Shown here piece after piece: positions 2,148 through 28,983 of a stretch of DNA of 46,337 nt (its first letter is position 1; each line of letters begins with the position of its first letter). The DNA comes from an uncultured archaeon (GTDB lineage Archaea > Asgardarchaeota > Lokiarchaeia > Sigyniarchaeales > SOKP01). Made by a program: the position numbers and the translations under genes. The stretch spans positions 1-46,337 of the forward strand of contig CAZWEM010000039.1 of the NCBI GenBank assembly GCA_964632315.1, read 5' to 3'. The notes beneath the pieces are model-generated. The model was not told where the DNA came from and did no database searches. It was given only the letters and a program-made list of their open reading frames with translations.

Positions 2148-2387
2148 TTACTTTACAGCCTCAAAATATATGTACCACTGTTCATCATCTTCGAGATATT
2201 CTGTTCCTAAGTGCTTATGCTTTGTTTGTTTTTTTAAATCTCTCGGAACACTCTCGGACGCTGGCTTATAGTCTGTGATTACCTTTAAAACAGTACCTGG
2301 TCGCATTTTCATTAACTGTTTTTTAGTTTTTAATGCGGGTACTGGGCAGATTAAGCCACAGCAATTTAATTCTTCATCATATTTCAT
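2148..2387 (-). CDS. tusA: TusA/SirA-family sulfur carrier (last gene of Hdr cluster 1)
   Basis: LNCCGLICPVP (CPxP motif), GTVLKVITD; AAGGAG RBS upstream. Confidence 0.9.
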   Translation of the reverse strand: MKYDEELNCCGLICPVPALKTKKQLMKMRPGTVLKVITDYKPASESVPRDLKKQTKHKHLGTEYLEDDEQWYIYFEAVK

Positions 2388-2429
2388 GGTTTTATTCTCC
2401 TTGATTTAATTTTTATATATTTAGATAAT

Positions 2430-4898
2430 TTAATCACATATTACTGAAAATAAGGGTTCGTCCATATTTTCTTCCGCTTTCATCTCTAATTGCATTAATT
2501 GAACCAACCGAAGCGCTTCGTACCTAACTTTTTTCGAATCAATTCCAGTTCTCTTTGCTATACTACTGATAGTAGAAGGCCCTTGGACATTGATATAATC
2601 CAATACCTGTTGTCTTGGAGTTTTCTCAAAAGTCATCAATTCTCTCTTTGACTTAAGATTAATGGCAGTTTTAAGTTGTTCTTCGTTCACTTCTCCTTGC
2701 TCAAATAGTCCTTTACCCATAGCTTGTTCGATAAGTTGTTTACCGCGATCAGTCCACACTACAACAGTAGTGAAACCTTTCTTTGAGCCGACTTCTCCTG
2801 CAGTTATGTCAGAATAAATCGCGGGAAAATCTTGACAATGAGAACAGAAATGATTGCAACTCAAACACCTTCTTGCCTCTTGTAGAGCCATATCTTCGTT
2901 CAATACCCTATCAATCTCGTCAAATGACCAATTTATCTCCTCAGTTGCGTCTTCTAATGATTCTGGTTTTAAAGAGTAATCTTTAGGAGGCTTTCTAGGT
3001 CCACTGAAAAATGCATTTGCTCGTTTATATCTCCCATCTGCTAAGTCTTCTCCCTTTAGATACCTATCAATCGATATTGCTGCTTCTTTTCCGTGAGAGA
3101 TTGCAGCAATGGCTACGGCTTTTGAATTGCTGACGATATCTCCGCCGGCAAAAACTCCTGGTATGTTTGTTTCAAATGTAGTCTCGTCTATTTTGATCTT
3201 GTTTCGCTCTTTTTCTAAGTCACTGTTTGTTGCAGCATCAATTTGATTAAAATCAACTGCTTGACCAACAGCTATAACTATATTGTCCACGGGGATTTCA
3301 TAGTCAGTATCTTCAACTTTATTCAATGGTTTTCTTCCGTTCTCATCCGGCGTTCCCCATTCGATGTTGTAACAATTCAGTACTAACTTGCCTTCTTTAT
3401 TCTGAGTGATTTTAGCAGTGGAACTCTTGAAGTGATATTGAATGAACTCCATTTCACTTTCGGGGATTTCCCTTAGAACTAATTCTAATTCTTTTTCAGA
3501 CATTATATCTACTAAGTGTACTTTCTCAGCGCCTAGTCTTAAGGCTGTTTGAGCAACATCTACTGCAACAGGTCCTCCTCCGATTACACCAATGGATTTT
3601 CCTTTAAATTCTTCTTTATTTTCCCAATATCGATATTTTCTGTCCATTAAGAAATTTATTGCGACGAATACATTTGGTAGATCTTCTCCTTCTAAATGTA
3701 AGGTTCGAGGCTTATATTGCCCAGTAGCTATGAATACAGCTTCAAATGCGTTGTTTTTTAAATCTTCTATCGTCATATCAGGACCTAATGGTTTGTTTAG
3801 TTCTACTTCAATTCCGGATTCTATGATTTTTTGAACATCGTAATCTAATACATAGTTGGGCAATCTAAATTGTGGAACTCCAAATCGTAACATGCCACCA
3901 AGCTTATCGGTTTTTTCAAATATCGTAGGAGCGTATCCCCGTTTCCTTAAGAAAAAAGCAGCGGTTAGACCTGCAGGACCAGAACCTACAATAGCCACCT
4001 TCTTTGCGTTCTTTCTTAATTTTGGTGTCTTTTTTGAACTCTTTTTTGCTTGTTCAATCTCCCATTCTGTTACAAATTTCTTTAACTCCCGAATTGCAAC
4101 AGGATGGTCGTCCCCTATTAAAGTGCAGCCAAACTCACACTCATTTGTACAAATTCTACCACAAATAGAAGGAAGTGGATTGCTTTCTCTTATTAAGTTC
4201 ACTGCTTCTTGATATTTACCTTCACGTATCAATGAAATATACCCTTGAGCGTTAACGCCCGAGGGACAGTTATTACAGCAGGGTGAACATACTAAACCTT
4301 TATCTGTTGCTTCGGTTCGAATTTGTGAATTGCAAAATAGTCCAATTTTCAAGAGATCACGCTTCATTTCTTCTGCAATTTCGGCAGCTCCACGCATCTC
4401 ACACGGCACGCCGACAATTCCTATTTGATCAAATGTTTCACCTGTGAGTTCAACGAGTCGCTTTAAAACTCCTGATCTACCATAAACCACTCCCGCTTTC
4501 TGAACTACTTCCCTTGGATCGTTTACGATTTCGGCTATTGGTTTTTCTTCTTCTTCCTGTACCATGACGACATTCTTAAGGGTCTGATTTTCTAGTAATT
4601 CTTTAACGAAAGTAGTAACAAATCCTCCACTTGAAGCTTTAGCCTGAATCTCAGGATCTTTAGTTCTCAAGGAATATACCGCTAGGGGTTGCTTTTCTTT
4701 AAACTTCTTTTGAATTACTTGTGGGCATGTTTGATAACATTTTCCACAATCTTGGCCATCTCTCTCTAAGATACAATAATCTTTAAGAGTTGGGCGTCTT
4801 ACTTCCATTTCAATGTGCTTACAAGATCCAGCACATAGTCCACACCCTTGGCATAATCCCGCATCTACTATTTCAGATTTTAATAATGTAAAACTCAT
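2430..4898 (-). CDS. Ferredoxin-FrhB (FpoF-like) protein with an inserted GltD/NfnB-like FAD/NAD(P) oxidoreductase and a C-terminal winged helix
   Basis: N-terminal CQGCGLCAGSC/CGKCYQTCP; FrhB motifs SSGGFVT, GIVGVPC, IGLFC; GltD-like region CPSGVNAQGY, CGRICTNECE, VAIVGSGPAG, GGMLRFGVP, GVFAGGD, EARRCLSC; FrhB resumes with CSHCQDF..SDITAG.VGS..GFTTVVVWTDRG. Confidence 0.85.
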   Translation of the reverse strand: MSFTLLKSEIVDAGLCQGCGLCAGSCKHIEMEVRRPTLKDYCILERDGQDCGKCYQTCPQVIQKKFKEKQPLAVYSLRTKDPEIQAKASSGGFVTTFVKELLENQTLKNVVMVQEEEEKPIAEIVNDPREVVQKAGVVYGRSGVLKRLVELTGETFDQIGIVGVPCEMRGAAEIAEEMKRDLLKIGLFCNSQIRTEATDKGLVCSPCCNNCPSGVNAQGYISLIREGKYQEAVNLIRESNPLPSICGRICTNECEFGCTLIGDDHPVAIRELKKFVTEWEIEQAKKSSKKTPKLRKNAKKVAIVGSGPAGLTAAFFLRKRGYAPTIFEKTDKLGGMLRFGVPQFRLPNYVLDYDVQKIIESGIEVELNKPLGPDMTIEDLKNNAFEAVFIATGQYKPRTLHLEGEDLPNVFVAINFLMDRKYRYWENKEEFKGKSIGVIGGGPVAVDVAQTALRLGAEKVHLVDIMSEKELELVLREIPESEMEFIQYHFKSSTAKITQNKEGKLVLNCYNIEWGTPDENGRKPLNKVEDTDYEIPVDNIVIAVGQAVDFNQIDAATNSDLEKERNKIKIDETTFETNIPGVFAGGDIVSNSKAVAIAAISHGKEAAISIDRYLKGEDLADGRYKRANAFFSGPRKPPKDYSLKPESLEDATEEINWSFDEIDRVLNEDMALQEARRCLSCNHFCSHCQDFPAIYSDITAGEVGSKKGFTTVVVWTDRGKQLIEQAMGKGLFEQGEVNEEQLKTAINLKSKRELMTFEKTPRQQVLDYINVQGPSTISSIAKRTGIDSKKVRYEALRLVQLMQLEMKAEENMDEPLFSVICD

Positions 4899-4900
4899 GT

Positions 4901-6136
4901 TTATCCCTCTTTTATTTTAATTTCTTTTACAATACCCGTTGAATCAATCGTAAATTCAACTGAGCCGTTTTTATAAGTTCCCTCAACCACATCAAAAACG
5001 TGGGTTTTATATTGTTCAAAATTATCTTTATCGTTAATTTGTGTCTTGAACCCTCCATAATATAGATTAGATAAGTTCATGTTTCCCGCTATTTTTCTAA
5101 TATTATCGGTGACTTCTTTGTATTTTTTTGGATCTTTATTTTCAATGGCTTCTGTTAGCTCCGATTCTAAATTCAGTAAATTCTTTCTATATTGTTTAGT
5201 GGTTTCACTCACATCGATATTATTTGCTTGTTCGTAGGTTTCAATAATTTTAAGCGTTAGAGTTATTGAATGATCTCCACCTAATAAACCTGAAATTAAG
5301 GGCAACTCTTCAATTAATCTCCCCATAAATACATCTTCTAATAAGCTTCCTGATGAGGTTAACCTCCCTTTAGGTAAACCTGATGTGGGAAGTGTAAATC
5401 TAAAGAAATTTCCCAATACGTCTGGTAAGCTCTCTGTAATATCATCATCTCTATCTGCCAATTTATCTGTGGCTCCTTTCTCAGAATGTTCTGTGGCAAC
5501 TTCGATATTACCCATTAATGTACCAAACATGCCTAGCATTCGAACTCCTGAGCGTTCAATCGTTGGTTTACAGCCACGACACGGAGTATCATAGTCTATA
5601 CATCGTTCTTTACATTCTTTAGCAATAAAACCATTACAAAGATATCCAAGATCGTTAAAACAAGTCTCTTCGTCATCTAATTCGATTTGACGCTTAACTT
5701 GTTCTAAGTAATCACAAGTTTTCCGACGACCACATACCGTGCATAAATTTTTCAATTTAGGTAATTCTTCACCTTTAATCTCAGATTGAAGTTCTTCAAT
5801 CTCACCTAAACAACCATGAACATTTATCACACCGTCGACTATACCTTGTAAAGGCGTCACTTCATGACCTCGTTGATTTGATAAGGCAAAGACTCCTCCT
5901 GTGGTCGTACAATCTCCATAAGCAATCATCTTCGTTGAATTTACTTTTATCTTGTTCAAAATCTCCTTATCATCTGGTAATAAATAACCCGTGATTACAG
6001 AGACATCTGCTTTTTGCTCTTTCCAATTTTTAGGATCAGAAACAAATTCTACTTTATAATCGGAATCACCTTTCAATAATATGCTTTCGTTAAAGCATTT
6101 ATTGCATCCGTTAAATTGAAAGACTTTAACATCCAT
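4901..6136 (-). CDS. MvhG/VhuG-like hydrogenase small subunit with a ~145-aa C-terminal extension resembling a degenerate large-subunit fragment
   Basis: GCNKC, YGDCTTTGG, HGC, LCTVC, CFNDLGYLCNG, PCRGC and FFRFTLP are MvhG-type motifs; extension covers residues ~265-411. Confidence 0.8.
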   Translation of the reverse strand: MDVKVFQFNGCNKCFNESILLKGDSDYKVEFVSDPKNWKEQKADVSVITGYLLPDDKEILNKIKVNSTKMIAYGDCTTTGGVFALSNQRGHEVTPLQGIVDGVINVHGCLGEIEELQSEIKGEELPKLKNLCTVCGRRKTCDYLEQVKRQIELDDEETCFNDLGYLCNGFIAKECKERCIDYDTPCRGCKPTIERSGVRMLGMFGTLMGNIEVATEHSEKGATDKLADRDDDITESLPDVLGNFFRFTLPTSGLPKGRLTSSGSLLEDVFMGRLIEELPLISGLLGGDHSITLTLKIIETYEQANNIDVSETTKQYRKNLLNLESELTEAIENKDPKKYKEVTDNIRKIAGNMNLSNLYYGGFKTQINDKDNFEQYKTHVFDVVEGTYKNGSVEFTIDSTGIVKEIKIKEG

Positions 6137-6584
6137 CTTTAACTGTCCCCTCCTCTCTTATTGCTGTAGCTAAACGCTCTACTAAATCTTCAAAATCTCC
6201 GACCGCAGTTTCTCCTTCTCCTGCTCGTGCAGTATATTGATTTACAAACTGATCGCTGTATCCTAATTCTTTGAATACTTTTTTCAGAAGTTTAATTCTG
6301 TGCATCGAAAGAATATTACCATTAAAAAAGTGGCAAGCACCTATACAACAACCTATACAGGCTACAGCATCAGCACCATTATCAATTGCGTCCATTATTT
6401 GAATCGGGCCAACTTGTCCCGTGCATTGAACTCTAACAATACGTATAGCTGGATTATAGGCCATTCGGGCTACACCAGCTGTATTTGCTGATCCTTGACC
6501 GCATTCGTTGCACATGAATACCACAATATTTTCCATTTTCTCGAGCACTTCAGGCTCAATAACTTCACACTCTATTTCAGTCAT
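6126..6584 (-). CDS. mvhD: MvhD-like [2Fe-2S] adaptor subunit
   Basis: FMCNECG..SANTAG, IRIVRVQCTG, GADAV, GCCIGACHF..GN. Start moved to ATG 6584, which follows GGAGGTG and overlaps the hdrA stop. Confidence 0.88.
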   Translation of the reverse strand: MTEIECEVIEPEVLEKMENIVVFMCNECGQGSANTAGVARMAYNPAIRIVRVQCTGQVGPIQIMDAIDNGADAVACIGCCIGACHFFNGNILSMHRIKLLKKVFKELGYSDQFVNQYTARAGEGETAVGDFEDLVERLATAIREEGTVKDGC

Positions 6585-8607
6585 CTGCACATACACCTCC
6601 ACCGCCTGATACGGCGATTATTTCATCTAATAATTGTTCATCACTAAAGTTTAGCAATTGAATTGCTCCTGTAGGACATGCAGGCATGCACATACCACAA
6701 GATTTACACGCAATTTCGTTAATCATGGGTGTTCCATCATCATTCATTTGAATAGCTGCAGGAGAACACACAGTTTTACATAATCCGCATCTAACGCATA
6801 AATCTAAATCTACGGATGGAACCAACATTTCCTTCTCAATGTATCCTTTTACTAATGGAGCAGCAGCAATCGCTGCAGCGCTTCCTGCCTGAGCAACTGA
6901 CTCCGAAATATCTTTAGGTCCTTGAATCGCTCCTGCTAAAAAGATACCGCCTTTACTACTTAAAGTAGGGTTCATTTTTATGTGGAATTCTTTAAGAAAT
7001 CCTTCTTTAGATCGCAATACTTGAAGTTTTGATCCTAAAGGACCTATTCCCTCAGGTGGAACCATTGCAGCAGAAAGTACGACTAAATCTCCTTTAAGCA
7101 GTAAAGGTGTTTGACTTAGAGTATCTTCAACGCTCACAATTAACTCTCCCGAGACTGGGTCTTTAATGATTTCTGAAGGCCTCCCTCTAATGAAACGCAC
7201 TCCAACTTCTTGAGCAGACTTGTAGAGCTCCTCAAAATTCAATCCAGGAGTCCTAACGTCGATATAACATATGGTAACATTTGAGTTAGGATACATTTCT
7301 TTAATAATTCTAGCATTTTTAACTGCAAATTTACAGCACACGCCAGTACAATATTTATTCCCTACCTGATCGTTTCTGCTTCCGACGCATTGGATCATTA
7401 CCACGTTCTTTGGTATTTTTCCATCCGATGGTCGTAAAACTTGACTATTCGTAAGTGATCCCGGAGCTAGCATTCGTTCTACTTGAAGTTGTGTTAAAAC
7501 GTTTTCATATCCTTCTTGTTTATAATGATATGGTTCAATCTCTGAAGGGTCATATTCATCGTATCCTACAGCCACTACTATAGAGCCTACTTTAAATCTT
7601 TTAGTTTCTGGTTGCATTGAAAAATCAACGGCTTGAACTGGGCACACGTTAACGCAAGTATTACATTCAATACAATCCTTTTTTGATCGAACATAAGTTG
7701 CTGGAATAGCTTGCGGATAAGCTTTATAAATAGCGTGTCTCATTGACATTCCTGAATCCCACTCACTGGGAACTTCAACCGGACAATTAGCTGCACATTC
7801 TCCGCACGAAGTACAATTATCTTTAACATATCGTGGCTTGATTTCTACTTCCACCTCAAAATTGCCCATTGAACCCTCAACTTCTTTTATCTGTGCATTC
7901 GTATAAAGTTCGATTAATGGATGGTTCGCAACTCCATTAGTAAGGGGTGAAATTGAACATTGTGGGCATTCCAAAGTGGGAAATGTTTTATTTAATTGAG
8001 TCATGTGTCCTCCTATCGTTGATTTTCGCTCTATAAGGTAGACCGGGATTCCTAATTCCGCTAGATCGTTAGATGCACGAAGCCCAGCAATCCCTGCACC
8101 AATTACCAGAGCTGCTTTTGTAGTGGATATCTTACGTGTTTCTACATCTTGTAATTTTCTCGCTCTATTAACTCCAGCCTCAATTAATCGCTTTGCCTTT
8201 AGTGTAGCTTTTTCTTTCTCCTTTTGATGCACCCAACTGTCAAATTCTCGTATATTTACTTGCTGGTGACGATGTTTGTTTAATCCCATTTCTTGGATAG
8301 TATTAGCGAATGTTCTCCCATGTTGATTTTTTGAACACGAAGCCACCACTGTCCTATTAACTCCTAGCTCTTCAATCGAATCCTTCAGCATTTGTACTCC
8401 TGGCTTACTGCACATGAACATGTAATGTTCTGCTTTTACTACATTTGGCAACGTTGAGGCATATTTCGCAACTTCTTCCACATCTACAGTTCCAGCAATG
8501 TTATGGCCACAATGACATACAAACACTCCGATTCTAGGTTCCTCCGATTTTTCTTCTGTTTCGCCTACTTTTTCGGTACTTTTTACTTTTTGCTCTTTAA
8601 TTGTCAT
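6577..8607 (-). CDS. hdrA: Heterodisulfide reductase subunit A
   Basis: IGVFVCHCGHNIAG, GAGIAG, IGGHMTQLNKTFPTLEC, inserted and C-terminal ferredoxin motifs, IQCVGSR, YCTGVCC, GPKDI. Start ATG 8607 after GAGGAGG. Confidence 0.97.
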   Translation of the reverse strand: MTIKEQKVKSTEKVGETEEKSEEPRIGVFVCHCGHNIAGTVDVEEVAKYASTLPNVVKAEHYMFMCSKPGVQMLKDSIEELGVNRTVVASCSKNQHGRTFANTIQEMGLNKHRHQQVNIREFDSWVHQKEKEKATLKAKRLIEAGVNRARKLQDVETRKISTTKAALVIGAGIAGLRASNDLAELGIPVYLIERKSTIGGHMTQLNKTFPTLECPQCSISPLTNGVANHPLIELYTNAQIKEVEGSMGNFEVEVEIKPRYVKDNCTSCGECAANCPVEVPSEWDSGMSMRHAIYKAYPQAIPATYVRSKKDCIECNTCVNVCPVQAVDFSMQPETKRFKVGSIVVAVGYDEYDPSEIEPYHYKQEGYENVLTQLQVERMLAPGSLTNSQVLRPSDGKIPKNVVMIQCVGSRNDQVGNKYCTGVCCKFAVKNARIIKEMYPNSNVTICYIDVRTPGLNFEELYKSAQEVGVRFIRGRPSEIIKDPVSGELIVSVEDTLSQTPLLLKGDLVVLSAAMVPPEGIGPLGSKLQVLRSKEGFLKEFHIKMNPTLSSKGGIFLAGAIQGPKDISESVAQAGSAAAIAAAPLVKGYIEKEMLVPSVDLDLCVRCGLCKTVCSPAAIQMNDDGTPMINEIACKSCGMCMPACPTGAIQLLNFSDEQLLDEIIAVSGGGGVCADD

Positions 8608-8608
8608 T

Positions 8609-9523
8609 TTATAATGCCTCCTCTTGTTTAATTTCCTCTCCCTTAAACAGGTACTCACGACCCATCATTTGGTATTGAAGACCAACAAATTCTTGATCCA
8701 TGCCCATTGCATAAGCCGTTAGTTGAGAGAGATGAATGACTGGATAGTCATAATTGCATCCTCTATTTTTATTCAAATAGTCCTGTCCTGTCTCAAATTG
8801 AAGGTGACAGAAAGGACATATATCTAATATGAAGTCTGGCTTGACTTCGTCTATATTTTCCATTTTTTCTTCGAAGATTGTCATGCTTGAGGTACCATCA
8901 TAAGCCTTTACGCCTCCACCAGCCCCACAACACGTGAGTTGCTCCTTGAATCTAACTGATTGAACTCCTAATGCCTCAAGATAATCTTCGATGATTGTTG
9001 GTCCTTCAGAACTTTCAATTTCTCTAATTCTAGTTGGCTTTAAGAAGTGACATCCATAATGGATCGCTGCTCGAGCATTAATCTTCCGTACGATGTGGTC
9101 TTCAATTCCCCAAGGTCCAATCTCATATCCGAGTACCTCTGCGATATGTCGCACCGTGATGGTCCCTTTGAATTCATAATCACCAAGCAACTTTAGTTTT
9201 GCATTCACCAATTCGCGGTGTTCTTCATTTTCTTTCAAGTGCTTGTTAATTTCTTGAAGGGTTCCAAAACATCCATTACACACAGTTAAGATATCAGCAT
9301 CCAGTTGTTCTGCTATGCATAAATTACGAGCACCAGCTACCATCCAATCAACCTTGTTAAAGGATCGAAATACACCTGGAGCAGGACAACAACCCGCTCG
9401 TTCCATGTCTAATAATTCATATCCTAACTTTTCCATGACATATTTGGTAGCCTTCTCTATTTGCGGATATCTGTTTGGCATTATACAACCGAGAAAAAAT
9501 GCAAATGTTTGTTCTTTTACCAT
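8609..9523 (-). CDS. hdrB: Heterodisulfide reductase subunit B (two CCG domains)
   Basis: FLGCIMPNRYP, CCPAPG, CNGC, HYGCH, CCGAGGG, CPFCHLQF. Confidence 0.96.
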   Translation of the reverse strand: MVKEQTFAFFLGCIMPNRYPQIEKATKYVMEKLGYELLDMERAGCCPAPGVFRSFNKVDWMVAGARNLCIAEQLDADILTVCNGCFGTLQEINKHLKENEEHRELVNAKLKLLGDYEFKGTITVRHIAEVLGYEIGPWGIEDHIVRKINARAAIHYGCHFLKPTRIREIESSEGPTIIEDYLEALGVQSVRFKEQLTCCGAGGGVKAYDGTSSMTIFEEKMENIDEVKPDFILDICPFCHLQFETGQDYLNKNRGCNYDYPVIHLSQLTAYAMGMDQEFVGLQYQMMGREYLFKGEEIKQEEAL

Positions 9524-9535
9524 TTTTTAGACCTC

Positions 9536-10093
9536 CTATTTCTCCTCTTCTTCCTCTTCTTCTACGGGAGGAAGTTCAAACATGTATTTTTCAAAATTTT
9601 TTAAATCTTTATCTTTCCCTTCTTCCTTGAATTTATACAAGGTTGGGGGAAGTTCTTCTAAACCTAACTCAACTCTTCGTTTTCTAACCTCGTCATTGAT
9701 CGGAACGGCATGACCCGTGTTTTTAAGATATCCAACCACTGCTCTATGATTAGGTGAAATGTTTCCTAATTTTGTGGCATAGTTTCTTAACTCCATGATC
9801 ACGTCCGTTGGACGCACGTCACGTGGACAGCGTTCATAACACTGATAACATGTAGTGCATAACCAAATGTCGGGGTCTTTAAGAACCGATAAATCTCCAA
9901 GAACTACTTTTCTAATGATATTTCGAGTTTTCAAGGCAGTCCAACGTCCTGATTCACAAGACGCCGTACACGTACCGCATTGGATGCACTGCCAAATATT
10001 GGTTCTTCTCTCAATCGAATTGAAGAATTCTTGGTCGAAATCATCATCAACCTTGAATTCCTTATGAGGTTCTTTTTCTTTAACGTCAGACAT
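9536..10093 (-). CDS. hdrC: Heterodisulfide reductase subunit C
   Basis: CIQCGTCTASC, IWLCTTCYQCYERCPR, TGHAVPIN, LGLEELPPT. Confidence 0.95.
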   Translation of the reverse strand: MSDVKEKEPHKEFKVDDDFDQEFFNSIERRTNIWQCIQCGTCTASCESGRWTALKTRNIIRKVVLGDLSVLKDPDIWLCTTCYQCYERCPRDVRPTDVIMELRNYATKLGNISPNHRAVVGYLKNTGHAVPINDEVRKRRVELGLEELPPTLYKFKEEGKDKDLKNFEKYMFELPPVEEEEEEEK

Positions 10094-10155
10094 TTTTTAT
10101 CACTCTTTTCTTTTTAAAAAATAAAAAAATTGTTTTAATTTTTATTATGTTTATT

Positions 10156-10584
10156 TTATAATGATACTATTTGTCCACCATCGCTCATTTCTAAGAATGA
10201 GGCGGCACCAACAGGTTCTTCAACAAAGTCATATAAGTCTTCTTTCTTAATTCCCATTAAGTCCATGGTCATTTGACATGGGTAAAGTTTCATGTTACCG
10301 CTCTCTACGGCTTCTTTAATCATGCCCCATGGATCCTCGATTCCAAACTTGGCCATCCTTTTCAGAAAGATCTTTGCACCCATGCCTTTCATTGGAAACG
10401 GCATCCCTGCTACTTTTGGCTTAAACTTTTTAGTTAGCAAATTTAGACCCCAGAATGTAAAAAAGAAGTTCATTTTAATATCCATTGCATCCCCTGTGGT
10501 TCCAAGGATCATCATCATTCCGAATTTCTCGAATGACTTGTCCTTTACAATAAAATTTACTGTTTCTACCATATTTTCCACCAT
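10156..10584 (-). CDS. DsrE2/DrsE-like sulfurtransferase
   Basis: FFTFWGL, YPCQMTMDLMG, VGAASFL. Confidence 0.9.
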   Translation of the reverse strand: MVENMVETVNFIVKDKSFEKFGMMMILGTTGDAMDIKMNFFFTFWGLNLLTKKFKPKVAGMPFPMKGMGAKIFLKRMAKFGIEDPWGMIKEAVESGNMKLYPCQMTMDLMGIKKEDLYDFVEEPVGAASFLEMSDGGQIVSL

Positions 10585-10669
10585 TTTTTATTATTTTTTT
10601 TATTTTATTCAATTTTTTAGCTTTTAGCTAAGCATAATTTTGTAAAAAAATTTTAATTTTAATCTTGGA

Positions 10670-11017
10670 TTATATCCAAGAGATTATTTTTTTAGAATTT
10701 TCTAATGCATCAACAAGCTCACTATATTCAGTGGGCTTCACTTTCTCGTGTAAATCTTCTAATGAAATGCCTCGTGCTTTCAAGTCTGGAGTTAGCGCAA
10801 ATACAGAAATATCTAGATTTAATAGTTCTTGATTTGCTAAGGGAATTTTTCCCTTCTTGTTATATCCAATCACGCCATCATGAATCAATGCCACTCCTAC
10901 TTTATCACTTTTCCTCACTTGAGTAGTAATTAGCGGTAACAACCTTTTCATTTGATTCCCTACCACTTCACTAAATCCAAAAAGATACAAGATGTCTAAT
11001 TCTTCCACTTTTCTCAT
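10670..11017 (-). CDS. DsrH/TusB-like protein
   Basis: LIHDGV, DLKARGI, EYSELVD..IISW. Start is ATG 11017 or GTG 11008, after AAGGAG. Confidence 0.8.
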   Translation of the reverse strand: MRKVEELDILYLFGFSEVVGNQMKRLLPLITTQVRKSDKVGVALIHDGVIGYNKKGKIPLANQELLNLDISVFALTPDLKARGISLEDLHEKVKPTEYSELVDALENSKKIISWI

Positions 11018-11022
11018 CTCCT

Positions 11023-11400
11023 TTAAAATCGAAAGCAAGTATCTGCTTGATCGATAAATTCAACAATTTCATCCATAGATACAACCTTTAAATTCTCATA
11101 TTCGATTAAATCGTCTCTTGTTAATCCCGCTACTTCCAAAGCAGTATCTAAAACGTATAAATCCAAGTCCGATAAGTCTGCCATTTCAATGACTTCATCA
11201 ACCGGATCTACCCCGACCGCAGTAGGTTCAGCATTTTTATTCAATAAATACACGGAATCCCCAGTAAACACCACTTTACATTCAATAAACTCTCCAAGTG
11301 CAACAAAACCAGAACCAATGCGGATCGCTTCTGCCGCTGAATTTTTTCCAACAGGGGATTGCTCGGTAACAATTACAACAGATTCTACCATTTCTTTCAC
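11023..11400 (-). CDS. DsrF/TusC-like protein
   Basis: QSPVG...AEAIR, VVFTGDSVY, GLTRDDLI; lies between the dsrE-like and dsrH-like genes. Confidence 0.8.
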   Translation of the reverse strand: MKEMVESVVIVTEQSPVGKNSAAEAIRIGSGFVALGEFIECKVVFTGDSVYLLNKNAEPTAVGVDPVDEVIEMADLSDLDLYVLDTALEVAGLTRDDLIEYENLKVVSMDEIVEFIDQADTCFRF

Positions 11401-11771
11401 GCTCCTGAACCAAATACGATTATTTTATCAGATTCTACCGACCAATTTGAAAAGTCACCTAATCCTTCTTCTGTGGCACATTCAATGAAATCATCTTCCT
11501 TTAATCCAGTTAAACTCACCCATGTGCTACAACCTGAAACAGGAACATCATTTTGAGAAGCGAAATCATGTATTTTCTTCGGAACATCCCTAATTGATGA
11601 GCCGCAACTAATATCCTTCTTTAGATTGTATACACCGGAACCAAAGAAGAAAAATCCCTTGATCTGATGCCCTTTAGCAATTAAAGCTTTTGAAAGCTCG
11701 ATTAGGGAATCAGTCGCCTGAAACTTGTAAGGCTCAGTGCTAATAAAGAACGAATACGTAGTCATCGACAA
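11397..11771 (-). CDS. DsrE/TusD-like sulfurtransferase
   Basis: TEPY, GHQIKGFFFFGSGVYN, candidate catalytic Cys in VSGCSTW, GLGDF...SDKIIVF. Confidence 0.85.
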   Translation of the reverse strand: MSMTTYSFFISTEPYKFQATDSLIELSKALIAKGHQIKGFFFFGSGVYNLKKDISCGSSIRDVPKKIHDFASQNDVPVSGCSTWVSLTGLKEDDFIECATEEGLGDFSNWSVESDKIIVFGSGA

Positions 11772-11790
11772 ATTCCTCCTTCTTTATTGC

Positions 11791-12015
11791 TTAATTCTTC
11801 TTGATTAAGAAAGTGACTTTTGCATCCTCTTCGTTAGTATTAACTAACTCGTCGCCAGTTTTGCTTAAAAGAGCAGGCACATCTTTCAAAGCCCCCTTAT
11901 CATCAACGATAAGCTCTAAGGTTTGACCAGAAGCCATTTTTTTCAGCTCTTTCTTGGTTAAAAGCACTGGCATTGGGCATTTCTTACCCATCGCATCAAG
12001 TGTGATATCAGCCAT
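11791..12015 (-). CDS. tusA: TusA-family sulfur carrier (first gene of Hdr cluster 1)
   Basis: TLDAMGKKCPMPVL, GQTLELIVDD..A..DVP. Confidence 0.93.
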   Translation of the reverse strand: MADITLDAMGKKCPMPVLLTKKELKKMASGQTLELIVDDKGALKDVPALLSKTGDELVNTNEEDAKVTFLIKKN

Positions 12016-12092: not shown

Positions 12093-12235
12093 TAGAGAAA
12101 AAATCACCCAGAGTATTTAAAGTATAGTTTTAAAAATTATAATAAGTGAATATAATAGTGAAAAAATATTCTTGAATTGTAAAGTGTAGTGAAAAAATTC
12201 TTTTTCTGCAAAAAGAATAGTGAAAAATATAAATA
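12093..12235. promoter_or_regulatory. Divergent promoter region with phased TAGTGAAAAA boxes (putative Lrp operator)
   Basis: TAGTGAAAAA at 12156, 12187 and 12218 (31-bp period); variant TAGAGAAAAA at 12093 and TAGT at 12125. Minus-strand TATA (TTTAAATA) at 12114-12121; plus-strand TATAAATA at 12228-12235. Confidence 0.65.
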
Positions 12236-12284: not shown

Positions 12285-12761
12285 ATGACTGTTTATAACC
12301 AGAAACATATTGAATTAGATCAAGAAGATCGAAAAATTTTAGATTTATTACAAAATAATGCTAAAATCACGATTAAAGAGATTTCGGACAGGGTGGGTAA
12401 AAGTCCTACAGCAGTTAGGAGTCGCCTTCAAAAATTAGAGAAATCGTTGATCAAGAAATACGTTGCGTTAATTGACTGTCGACAATTAGGATATCGGGAG
12501 ATGGTCATGGCATCACTAAGAGTCAATTCGGCACAACCCATTGAGCAAATAAAGATAAAAATTGAAGAGATGGAGGAAATCAAGTATGCTTATATCATCA
12601 CGGGAGAATATCCTTTATTCATCATGGCAAAATGCCAAGACCATCAAGATTCGATGGAACTAATTCAAAAATTAAGAGATCTCCCAGGTGTAGAGGAAGT
12701 AAAGACTCAAATCGTTTTAGATCGTATTAAGGAAGATACTACTATCATAATTCCTGAATAA
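12285..12761 (+). CDS. Lrp/AsnC-family regulator, divergent from Hdr cluster 1
   Basis: LDQEDRKILDLLQNNAK HTH, TAVRSRLQKL, YIITGEY, LPGVEEVKTQIVL. Confidence 0.95.
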   Translation: MTVYNQKHIELDQEDRKILDLLQNNAKITIKEISDRVGKSPTAVRSRLQKLEKSLIKKYVALIDCRQLGYREMVMASLRVNSAQPIEQIKIKIEEMEEIKYAYIITGEYPLFIMAKCQDHQDSMELIQKLRDLPGVEEVKTQIVLDRIKEDTTIIIPE

Positions 12762-18532: not shown

Positions 18533-18946
18533 TCACAAAGATACTATTTGCCCACCTTCAGACATCTCCAGAAAAGTGGCTGCTCCAACGGGTTCTTCAG
18601 TCCAATCAATCAAATCTTCACGCTTTACACCCATCAAACTCATTGTCATTTGACAGGGATATAATTTAACGTTACCGTTTTCGACTGCTTCTTTGATTAA
18701 TCCAAAAGGGTCCTCAATTCCAAACTTAGCCATTCTCTTTCGAAACATTTTCGCTCCTAAACCTTTCATTGGCCACGGCATTCCAGCTACTTTTGGCTTG
18801 AAATTCTTCTTTAAAAGATACAAACCCCAAAATGTAAAAAAGAAATTCATCTTTATATCCAATGCATCCCCAGTGCTCCCAAGGATCACCATCATTGCGA
18901 ATTTTTCAAATGACCTGTCCTTTACTATAAAATTTACACTATTCAT
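18533..18946 (-). CDS. DsrE2/DrsE-like sulfurtransferase, close paralog of 10156-10584
   Basis: Largely identical sequence, including FFTFWGL and YPCQMTM. Confidence 0.9.
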   Translation of the reverse strand: MNSVNFIVKDRSFEKFAMMVILGSTGDALDIKMNFFFTFWGLYLLKKNFKPKVAGMPWPMKGLGAKMFRKRMAKFGIEDPFGLIKEAVENGNVKLYPCQMTMSLMGVKREDLIDWTEEPVGAATFLEMSEGGQIVSL

Positions 18947-18960
18947 TTCATAATCACTTC

Positions 18961-19185
18961 TTAAGCTTTCTCGATATAAAAGAATATTTTATCATTTTCC
19001 TCTTTTGTCTCCAATAGTTTATCTCCAGTTTTACTTAATAAGGACGGGATATCTTTTAGTGCACCAACATCATCAGCTACAACCTCTAATTTATCACCAG
19101 AGTTCATTTTTCTTAATTCTTTTTTAGTTAGTAATACTGGCATGGGACACTTTTTCCCTATTGCATCAAGGGTTAATTCGGCTAT
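18961..19185 (-). CDS. tusA: TusA-family sulfur carrier with an apparent ATA start
   Basis: Frame extends upstream of the ORF call as (ATA)AELTLDAIGKKCPMP, 74 aa like the paralog at 11791-12015; GAGGTGA RBS 7 nt upstream. Confidence 0.85.
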   Translation of the reverse strand: MAELTLDAIGKKCPMPVLLTKKELRKMNSGDKLEVVADDVGALKDIPSLLSKTGDKLLETKEENDKIFFYIEKA

Positions 19186-24585: not shown

Positions 24586-25263
24586 TTATATATGTTTTAA
24601 GCGTGCAATTAATGGTTCCCAAAAGATTTCTTTATATTCCCCTGATTGCTTGATTTCATTAATGTTTAATGTGATAGCTTCTTGAGAACAAGCGTTAACG
24701 CAAGTACCGCATTTAATGCAATTTTTGCCATTATATGAAGGTTTTGATTTCCTTTTTGCGTTTTTATCTTGGGATTGTTCTTTGGTAAAGCATTCTGATG
24801 GACAAACGTTAACACAAGATAAACACGAGATACACTCATCCCAATCAACCTCAATGTTCCCGGTAATGTACACTTTTGCTTCAGTTTTAGGATTTTCGAG
24901 CTCAATTGTATCATATTCTAATTTGGGGACTATTTTTTTAGTTCTGATGGCAAAATCCTTTCGTTTAACATAGGTATTATTTTTTTTCAACCAAATCGCA
25001 GAAACAGGACACATGTATGCACAAGTTCCGCAAAAAGAGCAATCTCGTGGATTTGGAATTGAGGGAATGAGATCTTCTCTATTAATTCGAATTTTCCCTT
25101 CCATTTGCGAACTATAAATTACATGGTTAGGACATACTCTCGAACATATTCCACATCCAATACACTTACATTTATCAATTTCTATGGATTGTTCTTTATC
25201 ATAAAACTTTACTATCGTTTCATCAAATCGTTCATCCGGGATTCGTTTTACTCTAGGAAACAT
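24586..25263 (-). CDS. Polyferredoxin with four [4Fe-4S] motifs (FwdF/MvhB-like)
   Basis: CIGCGICSRVCP, CSFCGTCAYMCP, CISCLSCVNVCP, CIKCGTCVNAC; 4 nt after the hdrA stop. Confidence 0.9.
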   Translation of the reverse strand: MFPRVKRIPDERFDETIVKFYDKEQSIEIDKCKCIGCGICSRVCPNHVIYSSQMEGKIRINREDLIPSIPNPRDCSFCGTCAYMCPVSAIWLKKNNTYVKRKDFAIRTKKIVPKLEYDTIELENPKTEAKVYITGNIEVDWDECISCLSCVNVCPSECFTKEQSQDKNAKRKSKPSYNGKNCIKCGTCVNACSQEAITLNINEIKQSGEYKEIFWEPLIARLKHI

Positions 25264-25267
25264 TTAT

Positions 25268-27250
25268 TTAATAACCTCCATTTTCCAATTCTGAACTATT
25301 CAAGGTTGATTGTTCAATCATGGCATTTAACTGATTAGTCGCGAAATGATTCTGAACGATCGCCATGGATGGACAAGCACTAACACACGTCCCACATCCT
25401 TTACATAGTATTTTATTTATCTCGGCGATTTTCTCTGTTTCATTAAAACTAATGGCATTAAATGCACATACACTAATGCAGCTTTTACATCCGGCACACT
25501 TAAAATCAAGAACTGTTGAATAATATGGTTCAATCTCAATTTCCCCCGATGCCATTAAACCTGCTGCACATGAGGCTGCTGCTTTTGCTTGCGCTACCGT
25601 ATCAGGAATATCTTTAGGTCCTTGAACAGATCCAGCTATAAATATCCCTTCAGTTAAAGTCTCCACCGGACCTAATTTTGGATGAGCTTCCATTATGAAT
25701 CCATCTTCTGATCTCTGAACGTTAAAAATACGTGATATATGTTGCATATCCGATCTTGGCTCAAGAGCGACAGATAATACAAACATGTCTGCTTTTAATT
25801 CAATTTCTCGCTGTAATAAAGTGTCTTCTCCGCGAACTATGATATTTTGATCCTCATCTTCGAAGACTTCAGCAATTTTTCCCCTCACATACGTAATTCC
25901 ATAATCCAAACCCGCTCGATTGTAAAATTCCTCGTATCCTTTTCCGAAGGCTCTTATATCAATATAAAAGATATAAACTTTTGCTTCAGGATGTTTTTCT
26001 TTATATTGTCTCGCTTGCTTGGTTGCATACATGCAACATACTCTTGAGCAATATTTATGACCGTGCTCATTGAAATCTCTACTCCCAACACATTGTAAAA
26101 ATATAATACTCTTAGGTTCTTTCTTATCTGACGGACGTTTCACCTTGCCACTAGTTGGCCCAACTGAACTTAATAATCGTTCCATTTGAAAAGCAGTAAT
26201 TACGTTTTCATATTTACCGTATCCATATTGTTTTATCACGCTAGGATCGAAGGTTTGATAGCCAGTAGCCAAGATAATTGTTCCAACTTTGATTTTTGAA
26301 AACTTTTCTTTATCATCATACTCAATTGCGTTTACCGGACAAATTTCCTGACAGGCACCACATCTTATACAATGTTTCATATCTATGGTATACTTGTTAG
26401 GAACAGCTTGTGGAAAAGGAATATATGCTGCCTTACGACTTTTCATTCCTAGATCAAATTCATTTCCACACTCTACAAGGCATTCTTCCGCACAACTACC
26501 GCATCCCGTACAGGTTTCTTGATTAATATAATGTGGTTTGTGTCTTATAGTAACTTCAAAATTACCTACATAACCGTCAACGGATTCAACTTCTGAATAT
26601 GTATACAAATGAATGTTTTCGTTTCTTGCAACTTCTGCCGTCTTTGGGGTAAGAATGCAAGCTGAACAATCCATCGTAGGAAAGGTCTTATCTAATTTTG
26701 CCATGTTTCCTCCAATAGAAGGTTCTCTTTCTACTAAGTACACTTGGTAACCTTCTTTAGCCAATGCTAATGCAGAATTCATCCCTGCAATTCCACCACC
26801 AACTACTAAGCAAGAAGGCTCAACTGGAACTTTCGTAAGTTCTAATGGTTTTAATTCGGAAACTTTTGCAGCAGCCATCCTCACGTGATCTTTTGCTACT
26901 TCATAAGCACCTTCATGATCATTTAAATTGACCCAAGTTGCATGCTCACGGATGTTGGCTTGTTCAAATAAAAACTGATTTAATCCTGCCTCCTTACAAG
27001 TTAATCTAAAGGTATTTTCATGCATTCGAGGAGAACAAGCAGCTACAACAACTCGATTTACTAAACCATCTTCTATATCTTTTTGGATTAAGTTCTGTCC
27101 GTTTTCTGAGCACATGAACTTATAATTTCGTCCAACAACCACGTTAGGAAACTTTTCTGCTTCTTTAGACAATTTATCGACGTCAATAACACCTGCAATG
27201 TTAATTCCGCAATGACATACATATACTCCAACTTTTGGCTTATCCTTCAA
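25268..27250 (-). CDS. hdrA: Heterodisulfide reductase subunit A (cluster 2)
   Basis: VGVYVCHCGINIAG, DKTFPTMDCSACIL, QCVGSRD, YCSRVCCMY, GPKDIP. Likely TTG start at 27250 after AGGTGA. Confidence 0.97.
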   Translation of the reverse strand: MKDKPKVGVYVCHCGINIAGVIDVDKLSKEAEKFPNVVVGRNYKFMCSENGQNLIQKDIEDGLVNRVVVAACSPRMHENTFRLTCKEAGLNQFLFEQANIREHATWVNLNDHEGAYEVAKDHVRMAAAKVSELKPLELTKVPVEPSCLVVGGGIAGMNSALALAKEGYQVYLVEREPSIGGNMAKLDKTFPTMDCSACILTPKTAEVARNENIHLYTYSEVESVDGYVGNFEVTIRHKPHYINQETCTGCGSCAEECLVECGNEFDLGMKSRKAAYIPFPQAVPNKYTIDMKHCIRCGACQEICPVNAIEYDDKEKFSKIKVGTIILATGYQTFDPSVIKQYGYGKYENVITAFQMERLLSSVGPTSGKVKRPSDKKEPKSIIFLQCVGSRDFNEHGHKYCSRVCCMYATKQARQYKEKHPEAKVYIFYIDIRAFGKGYEEFYNRAGLDYGITYVRGKIAEVFEDEDQNIIVRGEDTLLQREIELKADMFVLSVALEPRSDMQHISRIFNVQRSEDGFIMEAHPKLGPVETLTEGIFIAGSVQGPKDIPDTVAQAKAAASCAAGLMASGEIEIEPYYSTVLDFKCAGCKSCISVCAFNAISFNETEKIAEINKILCKGCGTCVSACPSMAIVQNHFATNQLNAMIEQSTLNSSELENGGY

Positions 27251-28196
27251 CCGATTCACCTATTTTTTTGATAATTGGTTCAGTTGATATGAATGGTGGG
27301 ACTCCTGCAATTTCCTTGCTTTTCACTAACCCTACTTCCTCTGCAGTAAAACCTAAAGCTAAACCCAATAGCTGTGTATAATAAATTACTGGGATATTAA
27401 ATTTGTTTTCGTTTATATCTTTTGAAGAACTATTGATTTCTAACTGCCCTAAGTCGAATTGTAAGTGACAGAAGGGACAAGCCGTGATAATCGCCTCGGC
27501 TCCGACGTGTTCCATGTTCTTCAATTTTTCTTTCGTCATATCAAGTGACACATCCTTATACGCACTTCTCACACCACCTCCTGCTCCACAACACATGTTC
27601 TTGTCGCGGTAATCTAAGCTTTTCGAAAATGTAGCTTCCACCAATTCATCAAGAAATCGAGGTTCTTCCACATCGCAGTCCCATGGCCTATTTTCTGAAG
27701 GCTTTGTTAAATGGCATCCATAATGAACGGCTACATTCAGATTTAATTTCTCTTTTCGTCCATATTTTGTTCGTTGCCTGATCTTTTCAACGCCAATATC
27801 ATTATAAAGAATGTCCACTATGTGTCTAATCTCCACAGTACCCTTGAATTCTCTTCCAACTTTCGCTAATTGCGAATTTACAATCGCTCGTTTTTTAGGA
27901 TCATTTTTCAAGATGTTATTTACTTCAAGTAAACTTCCGTAGCAACCATTACACATTAAAGCGATATCAGTTCCGTTTTCCTCAGCGATGGTGATGTTTC
28001 GGGCGCCCAATAAAAGCCAAGAATCAATATCGAATCCTCGAAAAACTCCTGGAGCAGGACAACAACTCGCAGAATTCATTTCTTGTAATTCGATTCCAAG
28101 CTTATCAAAAACTTTTCTCGTGGCTCGTTCAATAAATGGATATCTGTTCGGAATTATGCAACCAAGAAACAACGAATATTTTAAATTTTGTTTCAA
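27240..28196 (-). CDS. hdrB: Heterodisulfide reductase subunit B (cluster 2)
   Basis: FLGCIIPNRYP, CCPAPG, CNGC, HYGCH, CCGAGGGVRS, CPFCHLQFD. Confidence 0.96.
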   Translation of the reverse strand: MKQNLKYSLFLGCIIPNRYPFIERATRKVFDKLGIELQEMNSASCCPAPGVFRGFDIDSWLLLGARNITIAEENGTDIALMCNGCYGSLLEVNNILKNDPKKRAIVNSQLAKVGREFKGTVEIRHIVDILYNDIGVEKIRQRTKYGRKEKLNLNVAVHYGCHLTKPSENRPWDCDVEEPRFLDELVEATFSKSLDYRDKNMCCGAGGGVRSAYKDVSLDMTKEKLKNMEHVGAEAIITACPFCHLQFDLGQLEINSSSKDINENKFNIPVIYYTQLLGLALGFTAEEVGLVKSKEIAGVPPFISTEPIIKKIGESVEG

Positions 28197-28217
28197 ACTA
28201 ATTCCTCTCCAATTTTA

Positions 28218-28841
28218 CTATAAAAATGGTAATACTTCAACTATAGCCTGTATATTGGTCATGTGTTTTGAAAGATAGTCTAATTCACTTTCATATTCGA
28301 CTTCTTTTTCTTCTTCTTGTCCAATTCCAACTAATTCATCAAAATGCGTGCTTTCTAAAAGAATTTGTATTTCTTTTACACCATTTGGGTTTGAATGAAC
28401 TGTTGGCGGTCTTGCTGGCAATTCGTGATATACTCTCAATGCTTCCCATTTTTCATTATCAATGGGTACGCCATGACCAGTTTTAAATAATTGATGACTA
28501 AGACTTACGTGGGTAGGGTGCATGTTGCCTTTTCTAACTGCTAAATTCCTCAATTGAATAATAGCATCGGTGACTGGTACCTTACGAGGGCATCGTTCAA
28601 GACAAGTATAACAAGTTGAACAAAACCAAATGTCTTTATCGTAGAGCACTTCTTCTAATCCTAATTGAACTTTTCTGATTATCGCTCGAGTAGTGAGTGC
28701 GGTTCTCCTACCAGATGGGCAACTTCCCGTACAATTTCCGCATTGTATGCAAGCTCCAATTTCTTTTAAACCAGCTTTTCTCATCTCATCAGAGAGATTA
28801 TCGGAAAAATTGGTTATTTTATCATATCGTAAATCACTCAT
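28218..28841 (-). CDS. hdrC: Heterodisulfide reductase subunit C (cluster 2)
   Basis: CIQCGNCTGSCPSGR, IWFCSTCYTCLERCPR, TGHGVPI, PPTVH. Confidence 0.95.
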   Translation of the reverse strand: MSDLRYDKITNFSDNLSDEMRKAGLKEIGACIQCGNCTGSCPSGRRTALTTRAIIRKVQLGLEEVLYDKDIWFCSTCYTCLERCPRKVPVTDAIIQLRNLAVRKGNMHPTHVSLSHQLFKTGHGVPIDNEKWEALRVYHELPARPPTVHSNPNGVKEIQILLESTHFDELVGIGQEEEKEVEYESELDYLSKHMTNIQAIVEVLPFL

Positions 28842-28950
28842 CTTTTTTTCGCTTTTTTAAGAATTCTATAGTTTTTTAAGCTATACACGATCGTATCTCT
28901 ATAAAAATTCGCTAAAAAACTATAAGATTAAATAAAAAAAAGCTAAAGAT

Positions 28951-28983
28951 GTATTTAAAATTATAGTTTTTTTTTAATAAGTC
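28951..28983 (-). promoter_or_regulatory. Putative TATA/BRE of hdr cluster 2
   Basis: Plus strand GTATTTAAAATTATAGTTTT...AATAAGT resembles GTATTTAAAGTATAGTTTT...AATAAGT at 12113-12147. Confidence 0.5.

Follow-up and report, generated by a model that had tools for sequence, protein, structure and literature searches.

Which compound takes up the electrons of the heterodisulfide reductase (Hdr) complexes of Asgard archaea? The main model of Imachi et al. 2020 draws an unknown XSH/X-S-S-X pair at this point, and Valentin-Alvarado 2024 writes of an 'unidentified heterodisulfide'. The question is raised in concrete form by a stretch of 46,337 nucleotides (hereafter the window), in which the genes of an HdrABC-MvhD complex stand among genes for sulfur carriers of the TusA and DsrE families; this cluster offers concrete candidates for the thiol/disulfide partner of an Asgard Hdr. 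The window is the entire 46-kb contig (C39) of a 4.45-Mb assembly with a completeness of 99.5% and a contamination of 8.6%, and its source is a salt-marsh metagenome-assembled genome of the Promethearchaeota (Lokiarchaeia), in agreement with the Asgard origin proposed in a first-pass annotation made from the DNA letters alone. DNA matching this stretch was found in salt-marsh, marsh and marine-sediment metagenomes. We find that the cluster is a real and conserved functional unit, which is transcribed in the cultured Promethearchaeum syntrophicum MK-D1. Its most likely function, to which we would give about an even chance, is the reduction of carrier-delivered sulfane sulfur by Hdr at the expense of F420H2 or NAD(P)H, with coupled reduction of ferredoxin.

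The cluster is a conserved functional unit

The cluster consists of twelve minus-strand open reading frames at positions 2148-12015, with intergenic gaps of -50 to +85 nt. Gene identities were assigned with Pfam and NCBIfam profiles, and NCBIfam equivalog cut-offs were applied where they are named. All reading frames were recovered where the first-pass annotation had placed them, as co-oriented and tightly spaced genes flanked by tusA genes and with their catalytic cysteines intact. The features are as follows.

12285-12761, plus strand: divergent Lrp/AsnC-family regulator (Pfam HTH_AsnC-type and AsnC_trans_reg)
12093-12227, no strand: phased TAGTGAAAAA boxes in the divergent promoter region (three exact copies and one copy with one mismatch)
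11791-12015, minus strand: TusA1 sulfur carrier, 74 residues (PF01206, E 9e-25)
11397-11771, minus strand: DsrE/TusD-like subunit, 124 residues (PF02635; TIGR03012 below cut-off)
11023-11400, minus strand: DsrF/TusC-like subunit, 125 residues (PF02635; TIGR03010 below cut-off)
10670-11038, minus strand: DsrH/TusB-like subunit, 122 residues, free of cysteine (PF04077, TIGR03011)
10156-10584, minus strand: DsrE2/DsrE3-type single-cysteine carrier, 142 residues (PF13686 DrsE_2, E 5e-23)
9536-10093, minus strand: HdrC, 185 residues, two [4Fe-4S] motifs (TIGR03290, 177.5 bits, cut-off 160)
8609-9523, minus strand: HdrB, 304 residues, two CCG domains (TIGR03288, 365 bits, cut-off 345)
6577-8658, minus strand: HdrA of the long bifurcating type, 693 residues as called (full-length match to 9sfi_A and 5odc_A)
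6126-6602, minus strand: MvhD-type [2Fe-2S] connector, 158 residues (PF02662 FlpD, E 5e-31)
4901-6136, minus strand: MvhGx, an MvhG-like protein with a cysteine-free large-subunit vestige, 411 residues (Oxidored_q6/VhuG-like; vestige at 4904-5398)
2430-4898, minus strand: frhB::nfnB/gltD fusion, 822 residues (FrhB_FdhB_N, Fer4_20, Pyr_redox_2, FrhB_FdhB_C)
2148-2387, minus strand: TusA2 sulfur carrier, 79 residues (PF01206, E 7e-18)

With MvhGx and the 822-residue fusion protein as markers of the cluster, 18 loci from relatives and 74 loci from a species-representative collection were compared. The search of that collection used highly specific peptide patterns, and its matches were Promethearchaeota only; the Thorarchaeial variant described below came from a survey of 301 Asgard genomes. 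Every Lokiarchaeial contig that reaches far enough (about 75 loci) shows the order Lrp (divergent)-tusA1-dsrE-dsrF-dsrH-dsrE2-hdrC-hdrB-hdrA-mvhD-mvhGx-frhB::gltD-tusA2, and its conservation across about 75 other genomes excludes a chance association. Organisms carrying the cluster include the cultured MK-D1 and Candidatus Lokiarchaeum ossiferum, as well as Candidatus Sigynarchaeum and Candidatus Harpocratesius. In Thorarchaeia the genes are arranged as hdrC-hdrB-hdrA-mvhD-mvhGx-frhB-tusA-dsrE-dsrF-dsrH, again with a divergent Lrp gene, with an unsplit FrhB of 356 residues and without dsrE2, and in both groups the TusA2 gene lies directly downstream of frhB. The association of carriers and hdr genes thus outlasts rearrangement. 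This view is supported by the HdrB tree, in which the Lokiarchaeial and Thorarchaeial copies form one clade (support 97/99) that leaves seven other HdrB paralogues of the source genome outside. The co-conservation of the carriers with this hdr clade, on which the first-pass annotation had made its proposal depend, is therefore strict in Lokiarchaeia and retained in reordered form in Thorarchaeota.

Within the 301 Asgard genomes, MvhGx was present in 33 of the 68 genomes of the window's family and 18 of the 27 genomes of its genus, in 2 of 7 genomes of the MK-D1 family, and in 6 of 77 genomes of one further family, which belongs to the Thorarchaeota. In MK-D1, the cluster (DSAG12_01139-01151) was transcribed at 182-348 reads per kilobase per million, a level similar to that of MvhA at 346 (Imachi et al. 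2020). The exact TAGTGAAAAA copies at 12156, 12187 and 12218 are spaced by 31 bp and are joined by the one-mismatch copy at 12093; lying between the cluster and the divergent Lrp gene, these boxes are probably regulator binding sites. With few exceptions, Lokiarchaeial loci have a divergent Lrp gene beside the cluster, as do the Thorarchaeial loci.

As a separate observation, a copy of the cluster that is 70-88% identical to that of the window occupies a 10-kb contig (C137:1-10210) in a genome from another Asgard family. This contig may have been mis-binned or may reflect a recent transfer.

The Hdr core is of the methanogen type

The class of HdrA and HdrB was judged by comparison to solved structures and from the tree of HdrB paralogues and orthologues. 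HdrA aligned over its full length with the methanogen HdrA 9sfi_A (E 3.5e-192, 640 residues) and with 5odc (E 5e-192), the homology beginning near residue 40 of the called reading frame, whereas the sHdrA structure 6tjr, from the Hdr type of sulfur oxidisers (sHdr), matched only the flavin core at residues 359-600. At the columns of Glu356, Lys409 and Cys/Sec197 (M. thermolithotrophicus numbering), which we take to be the flavin-site positions of HdrA, the cluster protein has E, K and C when aligned to 9sfi_A, so that the long methanogen type with the Glu and Lys positions of a bifurcating enzyme was read correctly at first pass. HdrB matched methanogen HdrB structures with an E-value of 1.9e-92 (2.5e-91 for 5odc), and its two CCG domains, also noted at first pass, are complete: all ten CCG cysteines, like the eight cysteines of HdrC, are conserved among 57-71 orthologues. 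The cluster cysteines of MvhD are likewise conserved among its orthologues. An X in one HdrB orthologue was considered as a selenocysteine and rejected, since it lies among consecutive X letters of a Thorarchaeial contig. Because HdrA is matched in full by methanogen HdrA and only at the flavin core by sHdrA, and because HdrB matches methanogen structures, HdrABC is by these alignments of the methanogen type and not of the sHdr type.

The complex thus resembles MvhAGD-HdrABC of methanogens (PDB 5ODC), of which HdrA, HdrB, HdrC and MvhD are close homologues with the cluster ligands and flavin-site residues kept. It differs in having no catalytic MvhA, of which only a cysteine-free vestige of about 160 residues remains on the small subunit, in its FrhB/NfnB-type donor, and in the six attached sulfur-carrier genes; mcr was not found. 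The sHdr-LbpA system of sulfur oxidation (Tanabe et al. 2024, PMC11094781) is an Hdr-type complex tied to a cascade of TusA, DsrE3 and rhodanese. Its genetic link to TusA and DsrE-family sulfur transferases is shared by the present cluster. However, sHdr has a short HdrA, duplicated HdrB and HdrC (hdrC1-hdrB1-hdrA-hyp-hdrC2-hdrB2), LbpA and an oxidative direction, whereas the cluster has a long HdrA, a single hdrB and hdrC, no hyp gene and no LbpA.

The donor arm contains a relic of a hydrogenase

The first-pass annotation had inferred an electron input other than a hydrogenase. Indeed, no gene of family PF00374, that is, of a catalytic [NiFe] large subunit, is present in the cluster, and FrhB and NfnB/GltD modules are, but the MvhG-like protein carries the fused remnant of a hydrogenase. 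The best structural match of a full-length model of MvhGx was MvhG (5odi_E), and twelve of its cysteines are invariant among 75 sequences, which suggests that the small-subunit part carries three Fe-S clusters. The canonical MvhG of the source genome stops at a '...FTL' motif that corresponds to residues 245-249 of MvhGx. Beyond this point, MvhGx continues for about 160 well-conserved residues, and residues 250-411 contain no cysteine. A model of residues 247-411 (predicted local distance difference test score 88) was compared with 48,161 chains, and the top 15 matches were all [NiFe] large subunits or their complex I homologues (NuoD), headed by FrhA 6qgt_A (Z 14.1, root-mean-square deviation 2.4 Å over 148 residues) and including MvhA 5odc_F (Z 12.7), while the next unrelated chain had a Z of 5.4. 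Foldseek and the ESM Atlas agree on a large-subunit fold. The end point of canonical MvhG, the cysteine-free extension and these fold matches together indicate that MvhGx is, as modelled, a small subunit fused to a miniaturised [NiFe] large subunit without metal ligands. True [NiFe] large subunits (MvhA) are encoded on other contigs of the source genome, C11 and C7, the former with a canonical hdrB-hdrC-mvhA-mvhG set.

The 822-residue protein contains FrhB_FdhB_N (residues 74-146), Fer4_20, Pyr_redox_2 (299-603) and FrhB_FdhB_C (668-739), followed by a winged-helix-like tail. Its middle part matched NfnA 9n5u_A (3.6e-91) and 4ylf_B (5e-73), and the two ends matched Fsr 7np8_A and FrhB 3zfs_C. 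From these matches, the fusion is read as an FrhB interrupted between its two halves by an NfnB/NfnA-like NAD(P)H flavoprotein, and the unsplit FrhB of Thorarchaeia shows the NAD(P)H module to be an insertion. The source genome encodes CofE and CofG for the synthesis of F420.

A comparable arrangement is known from the Elp-Hdr complex of Methanothermobacter marburgensis, in which Mvh is replaced by a truncated inactive FdhA (ElpA), the F420H2-oxidising ElpB and the MvhD homologue ElpC (Nature 2025, PMC12350162; PDB 8RVU). In both systems a dead scaffold, a flavoprotein of the FrhB/FdhB family and an MvhD-type connector feed HdrA, the activity being predicted from the genes in our case. The scaffold of the present cluster, however, derives from a [NiFe] hydrogenase and not from FdhA, no FdhA-like gene being present in the cluster; Lokiarchaeia add the NAD(P)H module inside FrhB, and the acceptor side is linked to carriers instead of CoM-S-S-CoB, the heterodisulfide of coenzymes M (CoM) and B (CoB). 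Besides ElpA, which comes from formate dehydrogenase, MvhGx would accordingly be a second, independent case of a dead enzyme relic that scaffolds the F420H2-type donor arm of an Hdr.

The carriers lack the canonical acceptor

The cysteines expected to carry sulfur are strongly conserved. Cys13 in the CPxP motif of TusA1 is kept in 47 of 47 orthologues, Cys14 of TusA2 in 67 of 67, Cys81 of DsrE in 53 of 53, Cys41 of DsrF in 51 of 52 and Cys103 of the DsrE2-like protein in 53 of 53. By alignment, Cys81 of DsrE corresponds to Cys78 in both A. vinosum DsrE (2hy5_A) and E. coli TusD (2d1p_A), and Cys103 of the DsrE2-like protein aligns with the cysteine of its best match in the PDB (2qs7_A). Two labels of the first-pass annotation can be retained only in part. 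The DsrEFH label is supported by three paralogous subunits in E-F-H order with the DsrE cysteine kept, but the DsrH-like subunit is free of cysteine and all three score below the equivalog cut-offs. The protein named DsrE2 is a single-cysteine carrier of PF13686, but with 48 bits against an NCBIfam DsrE2 cut-off of 210 it is not proven to be DsrE2. We also considered Cys10 and Cys14 of TusA2 as a general DsrC-like pair; this candidate was rejected because Cys10 is absent in MK-D1, Sigynarchaeum and most Thorarchaeia.

DsrC/TusE (PF04358) was not found in the source genome or in five relatives, including closed MK-D1, Harpocratesius and two Thorarchaeial carriers of the cluster, so that the DsrEFH-like set appears without its canonical acceptor. 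It thus shares with the DsrEFH-DsrC and TusBCD-TusE systems the three paralogous subunits, their order, the DsrE/TusD cysteine and the adjacent tusA gene, but not DsrC/TusE, the cysteine of DsrH or scores above the equivalog cut-offs. The other absences noted at first pass from the window extend to the whole source genome for McrA and for the NIR_SIR sulfite reductase, neither of which was found there. ComA was likewise not found. GCV_H/LbpA-like genes, three in number (contigs C1, C99 and C35), and [NiFe] large subunits occur on other contigs only.

A second DsrE-DsrF-DsrH set of the source genome (C5:95129-99995) adjoins genes for a PP-loop ATPase, an NMT1/THI5-like protein, ThiF and a TusA protein. 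This set is probably a biosynthetic thiolation relay, and because it can cover thiolation, the set in the window is free for a link to Hdr. It was also noted that an HdrD-like CCG protein with an FAD_binding_4 partner is encoded about 3 kb from the C5 set.

Proposed reaction of the complex

Three observations together favour the view that carrier-handled sulfane sulfur oxidises this complex, namely the strong genetic link of its genes to TusA and DsrEFH, the missing canonical acceptor, and the second set for thiolation. In this scheme, the proteins would form a soluble, flavin-based bifurcating HdrABC-MvhD complex with a donor arm that is not a hydrogenase. The FrhB-type flavoprotein would accept hydride from F420H2, and in Lokiarchaeia NAD(P)H would serve as an additional donor through the NfnB/GltD-type module inserted in FrhB. 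We infer that electrons pass from F420H2 or NAD(P)H via FrhB and the three Fe-S clusters of MvhGx to MvhD and the flavin of HdrA, the dead, miniaturised large-subunit domain holding the MvhG-like subunit in shape. The acceptor would be sulfane sulfur handled by a relay of TusA1, the DsrEFH-like set, the DsrE2-like protein and TusA2; a carrier-delivered persulfide or mixed disulfide would be reduced to a thiol and H2S at the two non-cubane clusters of HdrB, and the second electron of each pair would go to ferredoxin. Near equilibrium the reaction could go backwards. The donors, the bifurcation and the direction, as well as the choice between a carrier persulfide that is reduced directly and a small thiol with which the carriers exchange sulfur, are points that we infer. 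A more far-reaching version, in which the complex is an energy-conserving F420H2/NAD(P)H:carrier-persulfide oxidoreductase that bifurcates to ferredoxin, and TusA/DsrE-bound sulfur is the X-S-S-X of Lokiarchaeial Hdr, is possible but somewhat unlikely.

With sulfane sulfur as the acceptor, Lokiarchaeia of sediments would join sulfur cycling and would possess an electron sink besides the transfer of H2 or formate. An energy-conserving sulfur reductase would provide a cytoplasmic sulfur-based electron sink in Lokiarchaeia and some Thorarchaeia, which bears on hydrogen-sulfur syntrophy models of eukaryogenesis. As the cluster is present in cultured MK-D1 and L. ossiferum, the question of the substrate can be tested with recombinant proteins.

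Possible substrates: carrier persulfide or small thiol

Several observations weigh against the reduction of carrier-delivered sulfur. T-rich intergenic stretches lie 3' of dsrH and dsrE2, and in MK-D1, L. ossiferum and Harpocratesius an Lrp gene sits between dsrE2 and hdrC; together these features argue for at least two transcripts. A search of the source genome for YeeE/YedE-type sulfur importers found none. Some genomes of the window's genus that are 99-100% complete are without the cluster, which is therefore accessory. Its expression in MK-D1 was unremarkable, although this was measured without added sulfur compounds. Distant DsrE2-TusA pairs adjoin genes for cysteine desulfurase and NifU, for example DSAG12_01092-95 of MK-D1, and such carriers thus also serve general sulfur mobilisation.

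Further points concern the substrate pocket of HdrB. Both HdrB and HdrC exceed the NCBI equivalog cut-offs for the CoB-CoM enzymes. The residues that contact CoM and CoB in Hdr of M. thermolithotrophicus, namely Gly46, Gly198, Arg14, Arg201 and Arg240 (2026 structure-activity study, PMC13261682), were transferred to the HdrB of the cluster through an alignment to 5odc_B. Arg14, Gly46 and Gly198 are invariant in the clade; the position of Arg201 is occupied by Lys in most copies and by Arg in two Thorarchaeia, and that of Arg240 by Thr or Gly, this position being Val in Methanothermobacter too. With three of the five contacts unchanged and a fourth replaced conservatively, the aligned pocket appears largely methanogen-like. 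The substrate scope of methanogen Hdr is narrow and centres on small anionic disulfides (PMC13261682), and a protein-bound cysteine persulfide may therefore not fit into such a pocket. Co-folding of HdrB with TusA2 returned a score of 0.00, which is no answer and carries no weight for or against a contact.

These findings make a small anionic thiol a serious rival substrate. HdrB would then reduce a small CoM/CoB-like anionic heterodisulfide or persulfide of low molecular weight, and the carriers would feed or remove its sulfane sulfur or serve its biosynthesis. Besides the pocket, the equivalog scores and the close match to methanogen HdrB structures, this explanation is favoured by the Asgard literature, which itself refers to a heterodisulfide, and by a ComD/ComE-like two-subunit thiamine pyrophosphate-dependent decarboxylase on contig C8 (99463-100508), which is closest to sulfopyruvate decarboxylase but remains below the equivalog cut-offs (101 against 148 bits and 167 against 221.5 bits). 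Sulfonate chemistry of the CoM type is thus possible in the source genome, that of a non-methanogen. However, no known pathway for a low-molecular-weight thiol was identified, with ComA and McrA not found. A small thiol by itself also does not account for the tie of all six carrier genes to a single Hdr clade, which persists in two classes despite rearrangement, while no carriers were seen with the other HdrB paralogue of methanogen-like type (C11b). Taken together, we regard a small-molecule substrate, although the main rival, as rather unlikely, and reduction of carrier-handled sulfur remains our preferred reading.

It should be noted that the HdrB that adjoins real MvhA and MvhG (C11:36584-37465) has lost the pocket motifs CCPAPG and CCGAGGGV(R/K), which are kept in the carrier-linked HdrB (C39:8612-9526) and in the proteins at C39:27243-28214 and C11:86682-87695. 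The hydrogenase-linked Hdr may therefore use another substrate than the carrier-linked Hdr. The C8 decarboxylase genes are divergent from those of two Zn-dependent alcohol dehydrogenases.

Less probable alternatives: sulfide oxidation or cluster maturation

The complex might also work in the opposite direction, forming carrier persulfide from sulfide and a carrier thiol and confurcating these electrons with those of reduced ferredoxin onto F420 or NADP, so that TusA and DsrEFH would be loaded for thiolation or for the synthesis of Fe-S clusters or molybdenum cofactor without a cysteine desulfurase. TusA and TusBCD belong to a family of biosynthetic relays, and by textbook potentials the redox couples are close together, so that the reaction should be reversible. 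The sulfidic habitat of salt marshes or marine sediments would suit such a reaction, as would the failure to find a sulfite reductase or a YeeE importer in the source genome. However, biosynthetic routes appear to be covered already by the separate DsrEFH-TusA set beside the PP-loop ATPase and ThiF and by the TusA-DsrE pair of MK-D1 that adjoins a cysteine desulfurase, and close relatives dispense with the cluster. We therefore consider the oxidative direction quite improbable.

That the carriers have no catalytic coupling to Hdr, being maturation or repair factors for an Fe-S-rich complex with non-cubane clusters or merely co-regulated neighbours, is very improbable. In its favour, genes for cysteine desulfurase and NifU accompany distant DsrE2-TusA pairs, and by the count of conserved cysteine motifs the number of Fe-S clusters in the complex would be well above twelve. 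However, at least seven other HdrB loci of the source genome, including the hydrogenase-linked one, are without such carriers, we know of no role of DsrEFH as an Fe-S assembly factor, and two TusA proteins with DsrEFH and DsrE2 seem more than maturation needs.

Relation to earlier descriptions

The individual parts of the cluster are already known. For MK-D1, Imachi et al. 2020 already name an Hdr complex made up of the hdrCBA-mvhD-mvhG-FrhB-like genes, and they do not link the adjacent carriers to it. For Nerearchaeum marumarumayae, an isolate of the Promethearchaeaceae, the accessible text of a preprint proposes that Hdr reduces TusA/DsrE persulfides (bioRxiv 10.1101/2025.07.22.663070). As given there, the donor is H2 via a group 3c hydrogenase and the model is framed as sulfur assimilation, and the same text does not describe the 12-gene cluster, the FrhB/NfnB arm, the relic subunit or the Thorarchaeial variant. 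Beyond these two sources, we found no description of the cluster in the open literature. The term 'new system' used at first pass was therefore overstated. What is new, or was only sketchily anticipated, is the combination of a methanogen-type HdrABC-MvhD with a relic-hydrogenase/FrhB(-NfnB) arm and a TusA-DsrEFH(-DsrE2) relay, and the relic subunit itself.

Other Hdr and sulfur-carrier genes

The source genome contains about 27 open reading frames with CCG domains. Two further groups of genes in the window are possibly related to the cluster.

18533-19185, minus strand: second tusA-dsrE2 pair (PF01206 and PF13686)
24586-28841, minus strand: second hdrC-hdrB-hdrA-polyferredoxin operon (Pfam)

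The sequences of the second tusA-dsrE2 pair are close to those of the cluster copies, and the reading frame of its tusA begins with an Ile codon instead of ATG, GTG or TTG. The second hdr operon (region 24586-29578) has its own Lrp gene, and its HdrB type (HdrB2) retains the methanogen-like pocket motifs. In 8 of 81 loci, no more than 10 kb separates HdrB2 from the carrier cluster, and in MK-D1 the two are divergent neighbours. The best 120 homologues of the DsrE2-like protein were close Lokiarchaeial relatives only. In a search at the level of 50% clusters, none of the three contexts inspected for distant DsrE2 homologues contained an Hdr; instead, TusA with cysteine desulfurase and NifU, or unrelated genes, were found there.

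Lastly, contig C17 encodes on its minus strand (374-2875) an 834-residue protein that joins Pyr_redox_2 and Pyr_redox_dim domains of the CoA-disulfide-reductase type to rhodanese, TusA and DrsE_2 domains. Judged by its domains, this protein looks like an NAD(P)H-dependent persulfide or polysulfide reductase with built-in carriers, and it may provide a second route for sulfane sulfur that is independent of Hdr.

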